IMG/VR virus record: IMGVR_UViG_2713896900_000009
Length of the DNA: 15,634 nucleotides
DNA from: a virus
Lineage: Duplodnaviria; Heunggongvirae; Uroviricota; Caudoviricetes
Direction: 5' to 3' (one strand)
Made by a program: the position numbers and the translations under genes. The notes under the pieces are model-generated. The model worked only from the letters and a program-made list of their open reading frames with translations. It searched no databases and had not been told where the DNA came from. Below, in pieces: positions 2,811-11,239 of the stretch (positions are counted from its first letter, which is position 1; each line of letters starts with the position of its first letter).

Positions 2811-2960
2811 AGATCAGTAAGCGTAACTCTGGTAGGCTCACGCTGCTTTTGCGCTAAAGCAGTGGGCCATGGTTCGCTTGTGACCAGTTAGCATGAGCGA
2901 ATGGCTGGCAGGTGCTACCAACACCCACCAGCCGCCCATTTTCACAGCAGGAAACCGCCA

Positions 2961-3164
2961 TTACTGGCAGCGTCTGAATTTATTCCCATACCCGCCGTTA
3001 TCCTTCGCCAGACCCGCCAAAACTAACTGCGTCAGTATCAACTGACACCGGGCTTCGCTTACCCCGGTAATACTCGTCATCGCACGGGGCGTTATCCACT
3101 TGTCAGCAGGTAAGAAATGAAGGACTGTGGCGGCGGTTTCTGTCATATCTTGCTGTTTTAGCAT
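2961..3164 (-). CDS. Small hypothetical protein (67 aa), possible helix-turn-helix fold
   Basis: ORF from the track with a plausible ribosome-binding site (AGGT about 8 nt upstream of the ATG at 3164). The segment ITPRAMTSITGVSEARCQLILTQLVLAGL is helix-turn-helix-like. No family recognised; could be spurious. Confidence 0.3.
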   Translation of the reverse strand: MLKQQDMTETAATVLHFLPADKWITPRAMTSITGVSEARCQLILTQLVLAGLAKDNGGYGNKFRRCQ

Positions 3165-3284
3165 GTCTTTTTACCTTTTCTGGTTAACCTGACACACCAA
3201 TAACTCTTGTCTAAAAAGCCAGCAAGATAAAAAGTCGGTATTCACCTCCACCAGCACGTTTACTGTACTGGACCGCTTTTTGGC

Positions 3285-3311
3285 ACAAAAAAACCCGCTC
3301 GGAGGCGGGTT
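3285..3311 (-). terminator. Intrinsic terminator oriented for minus-strand (late-direction) transcription; candidate tR'-like site
   Basis: Read on the - strand: GC hairpin (CCCGC/GCGGG stem, 3293-3308) followed by a run of seven U (plus-strand A-run 3285-3291). On the + strand the same hairpin has only three T after it. Confidence 0.5.
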
Positions 3312-3423
3312 TAAGCTGTGTGGCGAAGTAACCACTCTTAACACAATACAATAGTTTTTGCGTACGCGTTAGCATTTTTGTTAAAGTATAAAAATGTAAT
3401 TAAACCAGTATGTTATCACTACA

Positions 3424-4308
3424 ATGAAATGCATCCGAAAACATCCAGCAATAGCTTATACAGTAATTATTTTAGTTTTTGCCTTAATATACAATTTCAC
3501 TTGGAGCGTCAATCCAGATTCTTTCATTAAAAACAACGTTCTCAACTCTACACCTGTATATGATGCCGTTAATTTAGCATATGCGAACAATGAGGTAAAA
3601 AAAGAAGATCCTGTCAGTGTTTCGAGGGAAGTATTTGCAGAGCAAATTTTAACACTTACAAATCAATTCAATAAGATAATAATTGAAAACTTAGAACTTG
3701 AAAAAACATTATCTCAACAGCAAGAAAAATTAAAACAAATTAGTGAAAGACAATCAATAAAGTGGGGCGAAAACACCAAAAAATACATAGCAGACAGTTT
3801 GAAAGATTTACACAAAACGCTTATCACTAAAAATAGTGAACGTACTGCCATAACATCTTTAAAAAACAAAACAAATGAAAGTCAGATTAACATTATGCTG
3901 GCCGACAAAGATGAAGAAATAGCCAAAATAAACCTTGAAATAGCGTATAAAGAAAATGATGCTAATGTCTATATCTTATCTCATGTCGGCGACTTTAACG
4001 ATCCAATAATCGTTAATGAGCTTGACGCAATCAATAAAGAAATTGAGAAAACAAGAACAAAAATAATAAACAATAAAAAGAAAATAATGGAGATAAGGAA
4101 TAAATCTCAATCTATGCTGGAGAAACTCAAAAAAGATGACCTTAACTTTTGGGATTTCTTATTTTATAGCATAGGAATATCTACAACGACCACCTTTGGT
4201 GATTTGTTAGCAAATTCAAGACTTATCAGACTGATAGTTTGCGTGCAACTTTTACTATCAATTATAGTTTTAGCTAACGTAACTCAAAGGTTTTTATCAA
4301 AAAAATAA
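3424..4308 (+). CDS. AT-rich cargo (moron) gene encoding a membrane protein: N-terminal transmembrane segment, long Lys/Glu/Asn-rich predicted coiled-coil, C-terminal pore-loop-like two-helix module. Function unknown
   Basis: 294-aa ORF on the strand opposite to every neighbouring phage gene. Composition is visibly far more AT-rich than the flanks, with AAA/AAT/ATA codons dominating. N-terminal hydrophobic stretch AIAYTVIILVFALIY. C-terminus FWDFLFYSIGISTTTTFGDLLANSRLIRLIVCVQLLLSIIVLA resembles the pore-helix, filter and inner-helix of a K+ channel (for example the KcsA region LWWSVETATTVGYGDLYPVT) but with a non-canonical filter. Hairpin terminators flank it on both sides. There is no strong Shine-Dalgarno upstream. 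Confidence 0.6.
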   Translation: MKCIRKHPAIAYTVIILVFALIYNFTWSVNPDSFIKNNVLNSTPVYDAVNLAYANNEVKKEDPVSVSREVFAEQILTLTNQFNKIIIENLELEKTLSQQQEKLKQISERQSIKWGENTKKYIADSLKDLHKTLITKNSERTAITSLKNKTNESQINIMLADKDEEIAKINLEIAYKENDANVYILSHVGDFNDPIIVNELDAINKEIEKTRTKIINNKKKIMEIRNKSQSMLEKLKKDDLNFWDFLFYSIGISTTTTFGDLLANSRLIRLIVCVQLLLSIIVLANVTQRFLSKK

Positions 4309-4343
4309 AAAACAAAGCCCTCAAAAATGAGGGCTAATTTAAA
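4309..4343. terminator. Bidirectional intrinsic terminator between the convergent moron and Q genes
   Basis: Perfect 8-bp hairpin AGCCCTCA-AAAA-TGAGGGCT (4316-4335). On the - strand it is followed by a long T-rich tract (TTGTTTTTTATTTTTTT), on the + strand by AATTT. Confidence 0.6.
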
Positions 4344-4345
4344 CC

Positions 4346-4705
4346 TTAAGATAAGAACGATAAAATCCCGTCCAAAAATCCTAGTGCAGTTTGAAGTTCT
4401 TTTCTGACAGTACCATCTGAACATTTTCGTTTCTTTGCGATTGTACGGAGTGAAATACCAATAACAAAGTGAGCAATTAATAATTCATATTCTTCTGGTT
4501 TATATTTACGCAACCGCGCCACACAACCGTCTATCATGATCCCTTCATCATCATCACACTGAAGGCGTGTTTTTTTACCATGAGGTAAAAGCCCCTTGAA
4601 ACCAGCCGCTATCGGCTGCCAGTCCACACCGCTGTTATCTGCTGCTGCCCATGCTCCCCAGCGGTCTAACACCTCGTACATATCACGCATCAAATCTCTC
4701 CACAA
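4346..4705 (-). CDS. Q: Late-gene antiterminator Q (phage 82 / QuuD-like family)
   Basis: 119-aa translation matches my recollection of the E. coli prophage Q homologue QuuD and the phage-82 Q family (LDRWGAWAA; IAAGFKGLL; QCDDDEG..IDGCVARLRK; KCSDGTVRK; Cys-rich motifs). It sits between the nin-like block and the lysis genes. Confidence 0.75.
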   Translation of the reverse strand: MWRDLMRDMYEVLDRWGAWAAADNSGVDWQPIAAGFKGLLPHGKKTRLQCDDDEGIMIDGCVARLRKYKPEEYELLIAHFVIGISLRTIAKKRKCSDGTVRKELQTALGFLDGILSFLS

Positions 4706-4707
4706 AA

Positions 4708-5703
4708 TCAGGCCAGCACACCAATTGCCAGCGCGCGATCGATAAATCGAAAAATCAGCTCCAGTTGGGAACCATACTTCTCTTCAAACGCCACGGTGTC
4801 CGCATGCAGCTCGTCGTGATGCTTTCTGCACAATGGCAACACAAAGAGGTCATGCGCTTTTGTACCCATTCCACCCTGACCGTGACCTATCAGGTGATGG
4901 GGATCATCAGCAGGCTTTCCACAACATGCACACGGCTGCCTCTTAACCCAGCGCGTGTACTTTTCATTAACCCAGCGGCGGCGTTTTGGGCGTAACATAA
5001 AAGACTCCGGCGACTCCGGATCCACTTTCAGCGCCAGCACCTTTTTCGCTTTATCCTGGATGATGCTGGTGGCAGGAACCGAAGGCACAAGGTCACTTTC
5101 CCGGGTGACAGACGGCACAACAGGTTTCGGTAATCTCAGCGCCTTACGGGCTGCGCTTTCAGGTAAGGCATCCGCCAGGTCATTACGAATCAGCCACCAG
5201 CACAGTTCCGGCATTGTCACGGCATGGTTATCATCAAAACCGAGATCCCGACGGACTACAGACAACACCCAGCGGGCACAGTTATCCGTTGCCATTGATT
5301 CCAGCCGTTCCGTGAACTGATCGCGCAGCTGGTTATCGCAGTGCCAGCACAGACGGATTGCTCCCGGAGCGTGTCGCATTGTGGTCATGTTCTCGCTGTG
5401 CCAGTCGGAATGAGGCCACTGGCAGCCTTTTTCACGAAGTAACCAGCTTTCAAGACATTCCACGCCACCAGCACGACGGATCACAGCCTCATTGCGGAAC
5501 ACGGCCCGAACGGCTGGATCATCCGCCAGCGGTTGTGATGCCGCCGGAACGGCACCACTGGCGAAAGATGAATAACGTTCCGGCTCAGGCTCCAGCAGGA
5601 CACGCCCCTGCATAAACAGGGGCATCAGCTCTGAACCTGGTCTGAACAATACGATCCCCATACGCGGGGCAATTTCAGGGGTCAGTAGTGCTCTCACGGT
5701 CAC
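4708..5703 (-). CDS. DUF968-family prophage protein (YdfU-like) with a C-terminal Cys/His HNH-like motif
   Basis: 331-aa ORF packed 2 nt from Q and 2 nt from the upstream gene. The C-terminus CACCGKPADDPHHLIGHGQGGMGTKAHDLFVLPLCRKHHDELH is a Cys/His cluster typical of DUF968/HNH-like proteins of lambdoid nin regions. Assignment is from recollection. Confidence 0.55.
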   Translation of the reverse strand: MTVRALLTPEIAPRMGIVLFRPGSELMPLFMQGRVLLEPEPERYSSFASGAVPAASQPLADDPAVRAVFRNEAVIRRAGGVECLESWLLREKGCQWPHSDWHSENMTTMRHAPGAIRLCWHCDNQLRDQFTERLESMATDNCARWVLSVVRRDLGFDDNHAVTMPELCWWLIRNDLADALPESAARKALRLPKPVVPSVTRESDLVPSVPATSIIQDKAKKVLALKVDPESPESFMLRPKRRRWVNEKYTRWVKRQPCACCGKPADDPHHLIGHGQGGMGTKAHDLFVLPLCRKHHDELHADTVAFEEKYGSQLELIFRFIDRALAIGVLA

Positions 5704-5704
5704 C

Positions 5705-6514
5705 TCAATGAACGGTATCGAGCAGCTTTAACAGCTCAGGGAATCGGGATTCGAAGAAATGCGGCTGCGTCTCGCGCGGATTTGCGGGACTGGTGATGTT
5801 CTTGCCGAACATGCAGCCTTTCGCTGTCAGCGACCAGAATTTTTTGATGTTGTTAATCGCGGTACGGCTGTATCGTTCGCGCTGCTCGACGATCCCCAGC
5901 TTCACCATCTGGTGATATGCCTGATTAGCCGTCAGGCGGATACCATACTGTTTCAACAGTGCACTCAGTGACAGTGTCGGGCGACTTGAGCCATCGTGTG
6001 CATCAGCAGGAGCATCAATGGCATAGCGTGGTGCCAGATTCGGTAAGCCAACAGCCTCCTGGAGTTTCTGACAGGCCCCAAGCACAGATGAGTTAGACAG
6101 GTTTAACTCCCGGCGCATAAAGTCCAGCAGAATCACGCCAGCCTGCATCTTGTCAGCAGCCTGCCCGGATAATTTTTCCGGTGCGCTGGTTACCATATCG
6201 AAAGTACGGATCACCTTCAGATGGAATGACGGGCTGATCCACATTGCATAGGCATACACCAGTTCCTTGCAGACATAAGTTCCCCGTTCATTTCCACCAT
6301 GAATCACACTCACCGGGTCAACACCCAAATTCTGGGTGTTGGTCAATTCATGAACAAGTTCAACAGTTTGTTGGCTGGAAAGAAACTTTCCTGGCTCCTT
6401 GGTTCTGGCATTTGCACCAAATGCTACTGCTGCGCGATGCAGATCGTTCAGGCTGTAACGCCCATAAGCATCACGACGAACTTCAATACCATCAATGACC
6501 ATCAGATTATTCAT
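5705..6514 (-). CDS. KilA-N domain antirepressor-like protein (start at internal Met with strong ribosome-binding site; track ORF extends to 6616)
   Basis: Translation from MNNLMVIDGIEVRRDAYGRYSLNDLHRAAV ... TYVCKELVYAYAMWISPSFHLKV fits the KilA-N domain pattern. The C-terminal half is AntA/KilA-C-like. AGGAG lies 8 nt upstream of the ATG at 6512-6514. Confidence 0.7.
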   Translation of the reverse strand: MNNLMVIDGIEVRRDAYGRYSLNDLHRAAVAFGANARTKEPGKFLSSQQTVELVHELTNTQNLGVDPVSVIHGGNERGTYVCKELVYAYAMWISPSFHLKVIRTFDMVTSAPEKLSGQAADKMQAGVILLDFMRRELNLSNSSVLGACQKLQEAVGLPNLAPRYAIDAPADAHDGSSRPTLSLSALLKQYGIRLTANQAYHQMVKLGIVEQRERYSRTAINNIKKFWSLTAKGCMFGKNITSPANPRETQPHFFESRFPELLKLLDTVH

Positions 6515-6533
6515 ACTTCGTTTCTCCTCTTGA

Positions 6534-6923
6534 TCAGGCGGCTGCACCCGCCGTTTTCTCGTACTTACTGATAGTGATCTCGACCTTCCCTCCCGGGATA
6601 ACCGGTCCCCACTCAACCAGCATTCTTTTCACCTGACTGTCGTCTTCCCACACACCCGCATGGGTCGGGGCGTCAAACAGCGCCTTGTTATAGTTGTCCA
6701 GATCGCGGATCCGGTTATCCGGAGGAAACAACACGATCTCCACTGAAGCAGGTGCCGACGTTGGTTTCGGCAGGCGACGTAACTGCTCAACTATTGCTGC
6801 GCACGCCGCGCTCTGGAATTTGCGCCCCGCTGCGCTTATCAGACTCTTACCAGCAAACGCCCCTTTGTTGGGGTGTCGCCAGTACGTGTTCACGCTGGGC
6901 GGGAAAGGCAAGATCAGCTTCAT
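6534..6923 (-). CDS. rusA: Holliday-junction resolvase RusA
   Basis: 129-aa translation carries the RusA signature as I recall it from E. coli RusA (PPSVNTYWRH; RDLDNYNKALFDAPTHAGVWEDDSQV; VEITI). Typical nin-region position. Confidence 0.75.
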   Translation of the reverse strand: MKLILPFPPSVNTYWRHPNKGAFAGKSLISAAGRKFQSAACAAIVEQLRRLPKPTSAPASVEIVLFPPDNRIRDLDNYNKALFDAPTHAGVWEDDSQVKRMLVEWGPVIPGGKVEITISKYEKTAGAAA

Positions 6924-7246
6924 ACTTTCAGGCCCCTCTCATGTAACCAGTGGGCTGCACGCAGCCTGGCGTTTTCCTCACCGGCAAGCAGTGCGCGGAT
7001 AATCCCGACCGCCTCGCTGTCGTCGTCCTTCACCGCGGTATGAAGCGTTATCCCCCGGGCCACGCCACGCTTTATCGTGATGACGCCTTTTTTCTCCAGT
7101 GCACGAAGATGCTCTACCGCTGCATTCACTGAACGGTATCCCAGCATGGTTGCCACCTCCTGATTGGTTGGCGGAAAGCCACGCTCTTTCTGGTAAGAAA
7201 TCAGCATATCCAGCACCTGCTGCTGGCATTGAGTTAACGTCGTCAT
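6920..7246 (-). CDS. LexA N-terminal DNA-binding-domain-like protein lacking the S24 autoprotease domain
   Basis: 108 aa. The N-terminus aligns by eye with the LexA DNA-binding domain (LT..QQ.V.D.I.....G.PPT..E.A..LG.RS.NAA.EHL.AL..KGVI.I..G..RGI.L). No Ala-Gly cleavage site or Ser/Lys peptidase domain follows. Start overlaps the stop of the upstream methyltransferase gene by 4 nt. Confidence 0.5.
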   Translation of the reverse strand: MTTLTQCQQQVLDMLISYQKERGFPPTNQEVATMLGYRSVNAAVEHLRALEKKGVITIKRGVARGITLHTAVKDDDSEAVGIIRALLAGEENARLRAAHWLHERGLKV

Positions 7247-7896
7247 GCCGCCATCTCCCTGACCAGTTTTTCCGCCTGCTGGCGAACCTGCGCCAGAAAG
7301 GCCTCACCACATGCCTCAAGTTCATCGCGCCCGATGTAGCTGATTGTCGGTCCCTTCCAGGTCTTGTCGAAAACAGCAATAGCACCAGCGAAGAACGCTC
7401 CTGTCGGCACCTGCTTCTCGTCCTTCGGGATAAACCAGGCAGGCAGTTCAAAACCAATACGCCCGCGAATAAAAGCAATATGGTCCGCATCTTCCGGCCA
7501 CCACACTTCGCTGGTGGCAGCTTTGATCAGGAAAACATAGCGCCCGCCCTTATCACGCATGGCACTGGCATGTTTCATGATGTAACGCATGCCGGTGATG
7601 TATTGCCCCTCATGCTGACTGGCGCGGCTGTATGGAGGATTTCCAAAGGCAGCACCTTTAAGCTCCGCAAGACGTTCTGACCAGTCATGCGCCAGCGCGT
7701 TGTCTTCCGCCGTGTAATACGCGGCGCATTTGGCGTTATCACCGTCAGTAAACAGATCCAGAACAAACGGGCCAAACAGGGTGTTAATTCCCCAGAAAAT
7801 GTTGTCCGGTGTGCGCCACTGATCGCCCACTTCCTTCAGTTCATGGGCTGGTTTGTTTCGCAACTCCACCAGCGCCTGGCAATATTTATTACTCAT
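7243..7896 (-). CDS. Phage Dam-like DNA N6-adenine methyltransferase (start at internal Met; track ORF extends to 7929)
   Basis: Catalytic NPPY motif (AAFGNPPYS) and overall resemblance to the small phage N6-adenine methyltransferase family of lambdoid nin regions. The ATG at 7894-7896 overlaps the upstream gene's stop in a TAATG arrangement. Confidence 0.7.
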   Translation of the reverse strand: MSNKYCQALVELRNKPAHELKEVGDQWRTPDNIFWGINTLFGPFVLDLFTDGDNAKCAAYYTAEDNALAHDWSERLAELKGAAFGNPPYSRASQHEGQYITGMRYIMKHASAMRDKGGRYVFLIKAATSEVWWPEDADHIAFIRGRIGFELPAWFIPKDEKQVPTGAFFAGAIAVFDKTWKGPTISYIGRDELEACGEAFLAQVRQQAEKLVREMAA

Positions 7897-8390
7897 TAAG
7901 CCCCCACGTAATTCCCTGACAGATACCACTCATCACCCGATACAGCGCGCTTGCTGCTTTTCCGTAAGCACCGCTCACGACGTGCCAGAAAATTGTTTCG
8001 TTCTGGCTGGGAGTGGCTTTCACGGAATGCCGCCATCCACACCGTTGCAGCACGACGGTATAAGCCCCTTGACTCCAGTTCTTCAGCCTGGCGGGTCAGG
8101 CACAAAATCACCCGGGGATCGTTAGTGCCGACATAGAAATTGCGCACAGGTCTGGTTTCACGAACTGGTTGTGGTTCCGGCTCCTGCGCTCTCTCAGTCA
8201 GGCGCGGGAAATGTCTGCGTGTATCTCCTTCACAACGGTGAGCCACACGCCCACTCTGACGTAACTTGCTTGCTGACTGCAGAACGCGCTGCCGTGAGTA
8301 ACCTGCAAAAGCATCCGCAATGTCTCCGGAAGTACACCCCGGATGGGCTTCAATGAATTTCTGAACTTCATTCAAAAGACTCATAATCAC
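7896..8390 (-). CDS. PerC-like putative transcriptional regulator with an N-terminal winged-helix-like region
   Basis: 164 aa. The C-terminal segment TRQAEELESRGLYRRAATVWMAAF resembles the PerC/Pch family core (..LE..GLWRRAA..W..). The start overlaps the replication gene's stop. Assignment is from memory and weak. Confidence 0.4.
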   Translation of the reverse strand: MIMSLLNEVQKFIEAHPGCTSGDIADAFAGYSRQRVLQSASKLRQSGRVAHRCEGDTRRHFPRLTERAQEPEPQPVRETRPVRNFYVGTNDPRVILCLTRQAEELESRGLYRRAATVWMAAFRESHSQPERNNFLARRERCLRKSSKRAVSGDEWYLSGNYVGA

Positions 8391-10564: not shown

Positions 10565-11239
10565 ATGAAAACAATCCATGACATCCGGCGGTCTAACGCC
10601 AGAAAACTGAGAGATGGTGTTGGCGGGAATTCTTCCTTTGCCACTATGATTGATCGCGAGCCAACCCAGACCAGCAGGTTTATGGGAGATGGTGCTACTA
10701 AAAATATCGGTGACAGCATGGCACGACACATCGAAAAATGTTTCGACCTACCTGTCGGATGGCTCGATCAAGAACACCAGACAACGAACATCACAAAAAA
10801 ACCTGATGTTTCAATCACTAATAAACAAATCACATTAGTCCCTGTCATATCATGGGTACAGGCCGGAGCATGGAAAGAAGTTGGATATTCTGAGGTTGAT
10901 TTGAGCACAGCAGAAACGTATCCCTGCCCTGTACCCTGTGGGGAAATGACTTATATCTTGCGGGTGATAGGTGATTCAATGATTGATGAGTACCGCCCGG
11001 GAGACATGATTTTTGTCGATCCTGAAGTACCTGCCTGCCACGGTGACGACGTTATTGCATTGATGCACGATACAGGTGAAACCACCTTCAAAAGGTTAAT
11101 AGAAGATGGGACACAGCGTTATCTCAAAGCGTTAAACCCAAACTGGCCTGAGCCTTACATTAAGATCAACGGTAATTGCTCTATAATTGGTACAGTGATT
11201 TTCTCAGGAAAACCAAGAAGATACAAAATCAAAGCCTAA
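10565..11239 (+). CDS. cI: CI-type prophage repressor with C-terminal S24 (LexA-like) autopeptidase domain
   Basis: 224 aa. N-terminal helix-turn-helix-like region. Probable Ala-Gly autocleavage site (VQAGAW), catalytic Ser in the GDSM motif (RVIGDSMIDEYRPGDMIFVDPE) and downstream Lys (TTFKRL). Divergent from cro. Confidence 0.85.
   Translation: MKTIHDIRRSNARKLRDGVGGNSSFATMIDREPTQTSRFMGDGATKNIGDSMARHIEKCFDLPVGWLDQEHQTTNITKKPDVSITNKQITLVPVISWVQAGAWKEVGYSEVDLSTAETYPCPVPCGEMTYILRVIGDSMIDEYRPGDMIFVDPEVPACHGDDVIALMHDTGETTFKRLIEDGTQRYLKALNPNWPEPYIKINGNCSIIGTVIFSGKPRRYKIKA

Follow-up and report, generated by a model that had tools for sequence, protein, structure and literature searches.

A predicted late-control cassette separated from its Q antiterminator gene by a foreign gene module in a lambda-like prophage

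The region between Q and the late genes

We analyzed a 15,634-nucleotide stretch of viral DNA (IMG/VR record IMGVR_UViG_2713896900_000009), which we will call the window. The window is a lambda-like prophage with its right operon on the minus strand, and our subject is the DNA between the gene for the antiterminator Q and the late genes. The Q gene (4346-4690, minus strand) ends with a TAA stop codon at 4348-4346. On the same strand, the stop is followed by a hairpin (4335-4316) with its U-tract (UUGUUUUUUAUUUUUU, 4300-4315), and then by about 0.9 kb of a gene that runs the other way (plus strand, 3424-4308, 294 amino acids in the list of open reading frames), which we will call the cargo. Beyond the cargo is a second minus-strand intrinsic terminator (3287-3312), with an 8-bp GC-rich stem (3312-3291) and seven U. 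Next come an open reading frame of 67 amino acids, an N6/N4 DNA methyltransferase, and the lysis genes, including a holin and Rz. A preliminary description of this DNA had listed the same series of features, and our analysis agrees with it on each of them.

We propose, with good confidence, that window 3287-3380 is a complete Q-responsive late cassette, and that a foreign module was inserted or swapped in between Q and this cassette. The preliminary description had left the late promoter (pR') in one of two places, 4300-4345 or 3312-3423. We favor the second place, which holds a palindrome (3360-3367), a -10 hexamer, and, at its edge, the terminator tR'; the first is cargo-specific. It had also supposed that an insertion displaced the late promoter. 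An insertion does seem to have occurred, but the cargo appears to have been inserted or swapped in beside an intact cassette, at the cost of the last few codons of Q.

In the direction of late transcription, the elements of the cassette are, in order, an A-rich tract, the palindrome, a stretch of A or T, a 6-nt gap, TAnnnT, G, xTAAGAGTGG, ~25 nt, and the terminator. The palindrome of the window (GCGTACGC, 8 bp at 3360-3367) occurs only once in it. We propose it as the Q-binding element, given its conserved position and its covariation with the clade of Q (see below). It is followed by a run of five A (3355-3359), by the predicted -10 hexamer TATTGT (3343-3348, minus strand), and by the start-site and early-transcribed block TTAAGAGTGGTTACTTCGCC (3322-3341, minus strand). 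This block is conserved across four clades of Q and in the DLP12 prophage of E. coli K-12; within the cassette, the conserved start block reads TTAAGAGTGG. The second terminator lies ~25-50 nt past the predicted start, and the stretch that holds it folds with -19.8 kcal/mol (z = -2.56). Relative to a start at A3336, the palindrome spans -31 to -24 and the A run spans -23 to -19. The -35 position holds TAACGC, which is not a usable -35 element.

The preliminary description had found no convincing sigma-70 promoter on the minus strand between 3312 and 3423. Our consensus scan of that strand also found no -35/-10 pair, but a -10 hexamer is present and is visible only through the relatives. Among 45 distinct relatives, 44 have TAnnnT in the same place, with its last base 1 nt ahead of G-TTAAGAG. 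Sixteen different hexamers occupy this position: the A at the second base and the T at the sixth are invariant (45/45), the T at the first is found in 44/45, and the middle three bases are free. We take this pattern as the signature of a -10 element. As tools for finding pR', the consensus scan and a position weight matrix for sigma-70 both failed unaided, and they helped only for a predicted cargo promoter and for a promoter-like site at the Q stop. In the window, the hexamer is part of a tandem, TATTG-TATTG-T (3343-3353, minus strand), which comprises two overlapping TATTGT hexamers 5 bp apart. We also considered the upstream copy (3353-3348) as the true -10. Its spacing to TAAGAGT is exactly that of phage 21 and lambda, but the A at the second base is found in just 31 of the 45 relatives (versus all 45), and about two thirds of the relatives have TA...T in that register. 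We keep it as an alternative.

The part of the region beyond the cargo is widely shared. From 2700 to ~3311-3389, which includes the start of the methyltransferase, the small open reading frame, and the terminator, the window is ~92% identical to mEp460, cdtI, SfV, Ayreon, and many E. coli prophages, and the cargo is not shared. PPyecE_EH1910 has a homologous short Q with ...gattagtgcggtccgcaaaaagtatgtcagtatgTTAAGAGTGGTTACTTCGCCacacagcttaaacccgccgcgagcgggttttttt right behind it, and the same small open reading frame comes next, so the slot that holds the cargo in the window is empty; the hairpin of tR' comes directly after pR' there as well. In PPyecE_EH1910 and ~15 viral contigs with an empty slot, only 28-39 nt separate the stop codon of Q from the start block. 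SfV has a Q of a different type (250 amino acids), which is followed by TTGCAT-17-TAAGAT, by the pause-like element AACGAT, and then by the same hairpin as in window 3312-3287. That hairpin is annotated in SfV as a terminator after pR', and the megablast homology of SfV to the window begins at 3311. Because the same hairpin follows pR' in both SfV and the empty-slot relative, we identify the second terminator of the window as tR'. Only ~60 bp upstream of tR' vary with the type of Q.

In about 190 relatives, DLP12 among them, the slot is filled: 0.5-3.8 kb of cargo, almost always antisense, separates Q from the cassette. For instance, other antisense genes lie between the same type of Q and the same block in E. 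coli FCI54, mEp460_4F5, phage cdtI, and Stx2a_1447. Searching viral contigs for exact copies of the 20-mer TTAAGAGTGGTTACTTCGCC gave at least 120 loci. Among the matches listed, 111 of 125 oriented loci have a short Q from PF06530 (45-100% identical) upstream on the same strand; in these listed matches, the end of the Q match is 81-3787 nt before the block and the stop codon of Q is 28-3781 nt before it. We also collected an independent set through the Q protein instead of the motif: 80 loci with a Q of clade A, the clade of the window, of which 79 have enough downstream sequence. A palindrome element (TAACGCGTACGCAAAA, with at most 2 mismatches) lies 625-3751 nt past the stop codon of Q in 78 of these 79 loci. 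It is exactly 30 nt before the xTAAGAGTGG block in 68 of the 79, and in 10 more the start block has diverged by more than 3 mismatches.

The Q of the window is a short protein of the Q21 family (114 amino acids). It matches PF06530 over its full length (E = 5.6e-45, 152 bits) and is weakly similar to the solved Q21 chains 6p18 and 6jnx (E = 5.7e-4). Clade A proteins are alike up to about residue 108, and their tails beyond that point (the last six or so codons) vary by insert type. Examples of these tails are ILSFLS, VLSML, VIITINPIMVVN, and CLAMLAYSMA, among others (window 4346-4366 and loci L001, L004, L051, L053, L097, and L121). This suggests that every exchange of cargo rewrites the 3' end of Q. 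The Q proteins of empty slots are 12-20 residues longer.

The insert itself is ~0.97 kb, from ~3381 to 4365. Its left boundary is within the last codons of Q, and its right boundary is just upstream of the A-rich tract at ~3381. The GC content of the cargo DNA is 0.29-0.32, compared to ~0.50 in the flanks. Only one of ~200 related loci, L127, has the same cargo (99.3% identity). L127 is also the closest relative of the window: it is 96% identical over 3291-7252, and it diverges exactly at the hairpin of tR'. The megablast matches to phages with other types of Q likewise begin at 3311. The terminator tR' is a recurrent mosaic breakpoint. Across phages and complete E. coli genomes, no megablast record covers more than 44% of the region.

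The hairpin just after Q appears to belong to the insert. On the minus strand, 4335-4316 folds with -14.5 kcal/mol (z = -3.97), and none of 200 shuffled sequences folds equally well; on the plus strand, 4316-4335 folds with -13.9 kcal/mol (z = -5.9). We predict that this hairpin ends the Q transcript (the early-right transcript); the convergent cargo gene uses the same stem at its own 3' end. The DNA at 4300-4345 is cargo-specific: elsewhere among ~200 related loci it is found only in L127. We assign the hairpin to the cargo module. In most other insert types, too, a stable hairpin lies no more than 60 nt past the stop codon of Q. The region as a whole has 7 terminator-like sites, versus 2.3 ± 1.9 expected.

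Pairing of Q with its palindrome, and the alternatives

The short Q proteins fall into four clades, and each has its own palindrome. Clade A (119 loci) is found with GCGTACGC, clade B (27 loci, plus 13 loci with the -10 hexamer CAGTAT) with GCGGTCCGC, clade C (17 loci) with TACnnnCGTA, and clade D (12 loci) with GTTATAAC. There are no exceptions: every off-diagonal cell of clades by palindromes is empty. Within clade C there are also sub-pairs that involve the loop and recognition-helix region, with SDGHIGKK accompanying ACGTACGT, SDTCIGKR accompanying ACGATCGT, and SDCWVGRL accompanying ACAATCGT. The N-terminal half of Q is almost invariant across the clades, and the differences are mainly in residues 73-100, which are predicted to form a helix-turn-helix.

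The DNA on either side of this pair does not follow it. Over the 300 nt upstream of Q, loci of clades B, C, and D match the window at 91-95% identity, yet many clade A loci are unrelated to it there. On the other side, a 12-mer that includes the -10 and touches the A run beside the palindrome is common to clades A and B (aacattgtaatctg in L098 and L013), and the terminator variants are reassorted among the clades. The pairing survives up to 3.8 kb of unrelated DNA between Q and the palindrome. Because the covariation holds while both outer flanks recombine, the palindrome is likely to be the binding site of Q.

The palindrome also overlaps a predicted promoter for the cargo. On the plus strand, a position weight matrix finds a -35 (TTGCGT, 3358-3363), an 18-bp spacer, and a -10 (TAAAGT, 3382-3387), with a start at ~3394. 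This promoter (3358-3387) scores 9.0, which is at the 99.98th percentile of the window. Of the 47 distinct junctions in clade A, 40 have TTGCGT followed after 17-18 bp by TAnnnT (background rate 0.063), and the -10s of these junctions are often near the consensus (TATAAT, TACAAT, or TAGAAT). The A-rich tract was considered as an UP element, but at least part of it doubles in clade A as the spacer and -10 region of this divergent promoter, so that reading is speculative.

Given this overlap, the palindrome could instead serve the divergent cargo promoter, as its operator or its -35, or it could be where another phage regulator binds, with Q reading some other part of the block. The -35-like TTGCGT that the palindrome and its T run form on the plus strand is consistent with this, and so is the absence of a palindrome in phage 21, where the sites of Q21 are direct repeats. 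But the palindrome varies with the helix-turn-helix half of Q and not with the cargo: in clade A, one palindrome flanks more than 30 unrelated sets of cargo genes. It is also present in the empty-slot phages, which have no cargo. The divergent-promoter pattern is absent from clades B, C, and D (0 of the 20 junctions with a -35-like hexamer), and there is no covariation between the palindrome and the gene that precedes Q. We consider this explanation improbable.

Still less probable is a late promoter and Q-binding element at the stop codon of Q (~4336-4364), from which Q-modified polymerase would run antisense through the cargo and both terminators. This is where pR' lies in lambda, phage 21, and SfV (directly after Q), and TTTATC-17-TAAATT at 4364-4336 on the minus strand resembles a promoter, with a score of 9.0 (99.98th percentile). 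However, promoter-like hexamers are expected by chance at 30% GC (10 sites were found in the region versus 5.7 expected), and the DNA at the Q stop is specific to this insert, as only L127 shares it. More broadly, the tail of Q and the sequence that follows vary with every insert type. There is no copy of the clade-specific palindrome at the Q stop, the predicted start at ~4329 is inside the 5' arm of the hairpin, and a promoter there would leave the conserved cassette at 3287-3380 unexplained. The promoter-like site overlaps the last codons and the stop of Q; if it were active, it would give an RNA that is antisense to the 3' end of the cargo and that escapes the hairpin.

It is similarly hard to believe that the cassette is just a leader and terminator, with the late promoter at 3165-3286 or with early read-through, and with control by Q being vestigial: there are weak promoter-like sites at 3288-3262 (score 5.2), many prophages of this type are defective (DLP12 among them), and the forward primer of a DLP12 reporter, if taken as -121 (PMC7918800), puts the sigma-E promoter from Rueggeberg 2015 some 350 bp before the block, but the window has an intact Q, palindrome, -10, and tR', each of which fits the family consensus, the retention of TAnnnT across 16 hexamers argues for a working promoter, and the stretch from 3311 onward is shared with phages that have other types of Q, where it follows their own pR'.

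We therefore return to a Q-responsive cassette at 3287-3380, against which several observations do weigh. First, pR' scores poorly: on the minus strand of 3312-3423, the best score from the sigma-70 matrix is 6.7 and the conserved hexamers reach only 4-5, so the site at the Q stop equals or beats pR'. The score of pR' is low because it has no -35. Second, no sigma-dependent pause element lies 13-14 bp past the invariant -10, which is the canonical spacing. The sequence TAAGAGT (3340-3334) is similar to the pause element of phage 21 (TAAGCTG), and it is at the canonical offset only from the upstream hexamer at 3353-3348; it begins 2 nt after the invariant hexamer (3348-3343). Because the spacing of TAAGAGT fits only the less conserved hexamer, the start is uncertain by ~5 nt: we predict a +1 at A3336, but use of the upstream hexamer would move it to T3341. 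Third, our locus counts include contigs that were fetched twice and many close relatives, so they do not represent independent events. Fourth, it is covariation that links the palindrome to Q. Finally, Q21 binds two 8-bp direct repeats (ATTGAGCA and AATGAGCA in phage 21; PMC6606751 and bioRxiv 10.1101/651190), whereas the element in the window and its relatives is a palindrome of 8-14 bp. Either this Q binds in a different mode from Q21, or the true recognition sequence is a part of the palindrome.

A possible switch between the cargo and the late genes

If the cassette works as we propose, then Q made from the early-right operon would diffuse to a site 1 kb away and bind the palindrome. Q would load onto RNA polymerase at, or just after, initiation at pR', and the modified polymerase would pass tR' into the small open reading frame, the methyltransferase, and the lysis genes. 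The hairpin at 4316-4335 would also stop unmodified transcripts that leave Q, which would shield the cargo from antisense transcription in the lysogen. The comparisons show the anatomy of the region, the empty and filled slots of the relatives, the covariation of Q with the palindrome, the conserved -10, and the shared tR'. We infer that Q binds the palindrome, where exactly transcription starts, what kind of pausing or loading follows, and any effect of Q on the cargo promoter.

The preliminary description had argued that late transcription would antagonize the cargo wherever the late promoter was. With pR' downstream of the cargo, this no longer follows, as polymerase modified by Q would never enter the cargo. 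The only transcripts that could run antisense to it are those from the early operon that read through the terminator at 4316-4335. The switch between lysogeny and lysis that had been suggested for the cargo may still exist by another route, in which Q occludes the cargo promoter.

The cargo promoter and pR' are back to back with overlapping upstream regions, and the -35 of the cargo promoter is under the proposed Q site. This arrangement suggests that the binding of Q shuts the cargo promoter while it activates late transcription. In the lysogen, polymerase would occupy the cargo promoter, and pR', which has no -35, would stay nearly silent. Once Q arrives, it would block the cargo promoter, replace the missing -35 contact at pR', and load onto polymerase. 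It is a tentative idea that a single contact between Q and the palindrome turns a defense cargo off and lysis on, with the two promoters never occupied together. Equally tentative, and part of the same joint proposal, is that the subfamily of short Q proteins has evolved four to six or more different DNA specificities, with sites that are symmetric where those of Q21 are direct repeats.

The leader between pR' and tR' is a further conserved feature. These ~50 nt (3287-3341 in the window; 4725-4790 in the DLP12 locus, L215) are almost identical across the four clades of Q and K-12. A terminator alone should not need this much conservation, and a small RNA could be made from the leader in lysogens. 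A hairpin within the leader (GUGG...CCAC, -6.3 kcal/mol) was considered and set aside, as it is lost in many variants with no consistent compensatory changes. Short RNAs that run from pR' to tR' include the 6S RNA of lambda, StxS of the Stx phages (258 nt), and IsrK of Gifsy-1 (PMC7547250). Like these, the late promoter of the window is predicted to yield a short RNA that stops at tR' in the lysogen, from a well-conserved leader. However, this RNA would be ~50 nt instead of the 258 nt of StxS, and the Rfam match to isrK has 16.5 bits versus a threshold of 50. A scan of the window with Rfam found no family at the gathering threshold; we regard the sub-threshold matches (isrK, ErsA, and the Trp leader) as noise that is driven by terminators.

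Known systems and the contents of the slot

Among known systems, that of phage 21 (annotated in OL657228) is one of the closest to the cassette. There, a -35 (TTGACA) starts 7 nt past the stop of Q, the Q-binding element spans -27 to -12, the -10 is AACACT, the pause element TAAGCTG is at +2 to +8, and the terminator is reached by +50. The window has in common with phage 21 a Q from PF06530 with a conserved N-terminal half, a Q element between the -35 and -10 positions, and a compact cassette with the terminator within about 50 nt of the start; also, the empty-slot relatives place the cassette right after Q. The differences are that the Q of the window is shorter (114 versus 162 amino acids) and just weakly similar (E = 5.7e-4), that clade A has no -35 resembling TTGACA and no clearly placed pause element, and that the cassette in the window is ~1 kb from Q instead of directly downstream.

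Another example is in E. coli K-12 itself. DLP12 encodes quuD (a clade C Q), the antisense porin gene nmpC, which is interrupted by IS5, then TTTACGTACGTAAAAAATTGGTTATGCTGTTAAGAGTGGTTACTTCGTC and a terminator, and then essD. Its cassette comprises the palindrome TTTACGTACGTAAA, TATGCT, TTAAGAGTGGTTACTTCGTC, and the terminator, followed by the lysis genes. So the architecture is the same (quuD, antisense nmpC, and then essD/rrrD/rzpD), but the clade of Q and the palindrome differ, and there is neither a small open reading frame nor a methyltransferase between tR' and the holin. According to PMC7918800, which cites Rueggeberg 2013, the lysis operon of DLP12 is under a phage Q-type antiterminator. 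That paper also describes the forward primer of a reporter as -121. The primer (L215 4254-4273) is within the 5' part of nmpC, which corresponds to a start ~350 bp upstream of the cassette. We attribute this start to the promoter that depends on RpoE (Rueggeberg 2015), in which case the lysis genes of DLP12 may have two upstream promoters. The reverse primer is absent from the 6-kb stretch of DLP12 that we searched, so these primers are not informative about the start in DLP12.

In the cargo protein of the window, an N-terminal membrane segment precedes a long middle that resembles a coiled coil and a C-terminal pore like that of K channels, with the motif TTTFGD. The protein has a weak match to Ion_trans_2 (E = 2.5e-5), and it has no match in PADLOC or PHROG. 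An identical protein is recorded in E. coli, in the protein database, as an "ion channel." Homologs with 50-60% identity are found across the Enterobacterales, either beside genes for nSTAND3, ArdC, or HD-domain proteins or at the end of a prophage, next to the integrase. We consider the cargo to be a candidate effector of abortive infection or exclusion, with its defense context known from gene location only.

Morons are extra genes between neighbors that are adjacent in relatives, and they have their own promoter and terminator (the definition of Juhala and Hendrix). The insert has an extra gene where relatives have adjacent neighbors, a deviant GC content, a predicted promoter of its own, and the hairpin at 4316-4335. 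Judging by these features, we would call it a classic self-contained moron. Like the prophage defense hotspots of P2 and P4 (PMC9122126), the slot has dozens of alternative fillings, including known defense systems. The slot differs from morons and from these hotspots in that it separates a regulator from the regulator's own cis target, takes the 3' end of the regulator, and is almost always filled in the antisense orientation.

Across the relatives, the slot between Q and pR' has 53 non-empty clusters of inserts, with GC contents of 0.29-0.46, and the largest open reading frame is antisense to Q in 51 of these. Five of 10 cargo proteins from other fillings match PADLOC models: a full-length KwaB of Kiwa (E = 1e-143) with a membrane partner; a PifA-like PDC-S20 (E = 3e-177); NsnA/PD-T4-2_A; HEC-04/ATPase-Toprim, which is an ATPase similar to OLD and Gabija that is paired with an open reading frame resembling cytosine methyltransferases; and PDC-S33. 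Examples of loci with a filled slot are L183, L068, L201, L098, and L156. Several common fillings with two genes (one of ~270-310 amino acids and a membrane protein of ~150-190 amino acids) had no match in PADLOC. These fillings point to the gap between Q and pR' being an orientation-biased defense hotspot in the lambdoid prophages of enterobacteria.

In phi80, the "noncontiguous operon" taiEcA/atiEcA includes an antisense defense gene within a Q-dependent transcript (PMC11364771). There too, an antisense gene lies beside late genes that are controlled by Q, and entry into the lytic cycle should silence it. In the window, however, the cargo (3424-4308) is upstream of the predicted start of pR' (~3336), and late transcription would not cross it, so the switch by antisense interference described for phi80 does not carry over.

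Much of the logic that we describe is already known, including how Q, pR', and tR' work, morons, and the order quuD-nmpC-essD, and Q control of DLP12 lysis is reported (PMC7918800, citing Rueggeberg 2013). In the literature that we searched, we found no report of matched classes of Q and palindrome, of the gap between Q and pR' as a defense hotspot, or of a cargo promoter that overlaps the site of Q, which does not prove that these are undescribed. A full-text search of the literature for the sequences of the block returned unrelated papers only.

If our interpretation is correct, then an apparent anomaly is removed: the late control region is intact, it follows an ordinary logic, and its elements can be placed with an accuracy of a few bases. 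Also, a regulator and a cis target that stay paired across 0.5-3.8 kb are a natural experiment on which bases Q reads. The matched pairs of Q and palindrome, in a subfamily that includes QuuD of K-12, are possible orthogonal switches for antitermination, and they predict a binding mode unlike that of the solved Q21 complex. The gap between Q and pR' would be a good place to look for new defense genes, with the channel-like protein of the window among the candidates. And the overlap between the cargo promoter and the Q site, if true, is a possible route by which a prophage silences its own defenses when it becomes lytic.

The other genes of the window fit with a lambda-like prophage. Its regulatory and replication genes encode a repressor similar to CI (10565-11239, plus strand), a protein similar to CII, a replication protein similar to O, and RusA. 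After RusA, the right operon continues with a KilA-N protein, a DUF968 protein, and then Q. The first late open reading frame (2961-3164, minus strand; 67 amino acids) matches phrog_331, which has no assigned role, and it is also kept after tR' in mEp460, cdtI, SfV, and Ayreon. It is followed on the minus strand by the methyltransferase (1758-2810) and the holin (1345-1752), by a protein of 158 amino acids (865-1341) that has no match in Pfam and is an endolysin by position only, and by Rz (414-881); the methyltransferase, the holin, and Rz were identified by matches to Pfam. No tRNA genes were found in the window.

The prophage encodes two proteins that resemble DNA methyltransferases. The one in the late operon (1758-2810), just past tR', is an N6/N4 enzyme of the type II-like kind and matches MTase_II in PADLOC (E = 1e-152). 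The other is in the early-right operon (7243-7929, minus strand) and matches phrog_111 and also phrog_33262. The KilA-N protein (5705-6616, minus strand), upstream of the DUF968 protein and Q, has a weak match to the PADLOC candidate system PDC-S22 (E = 2e-5).

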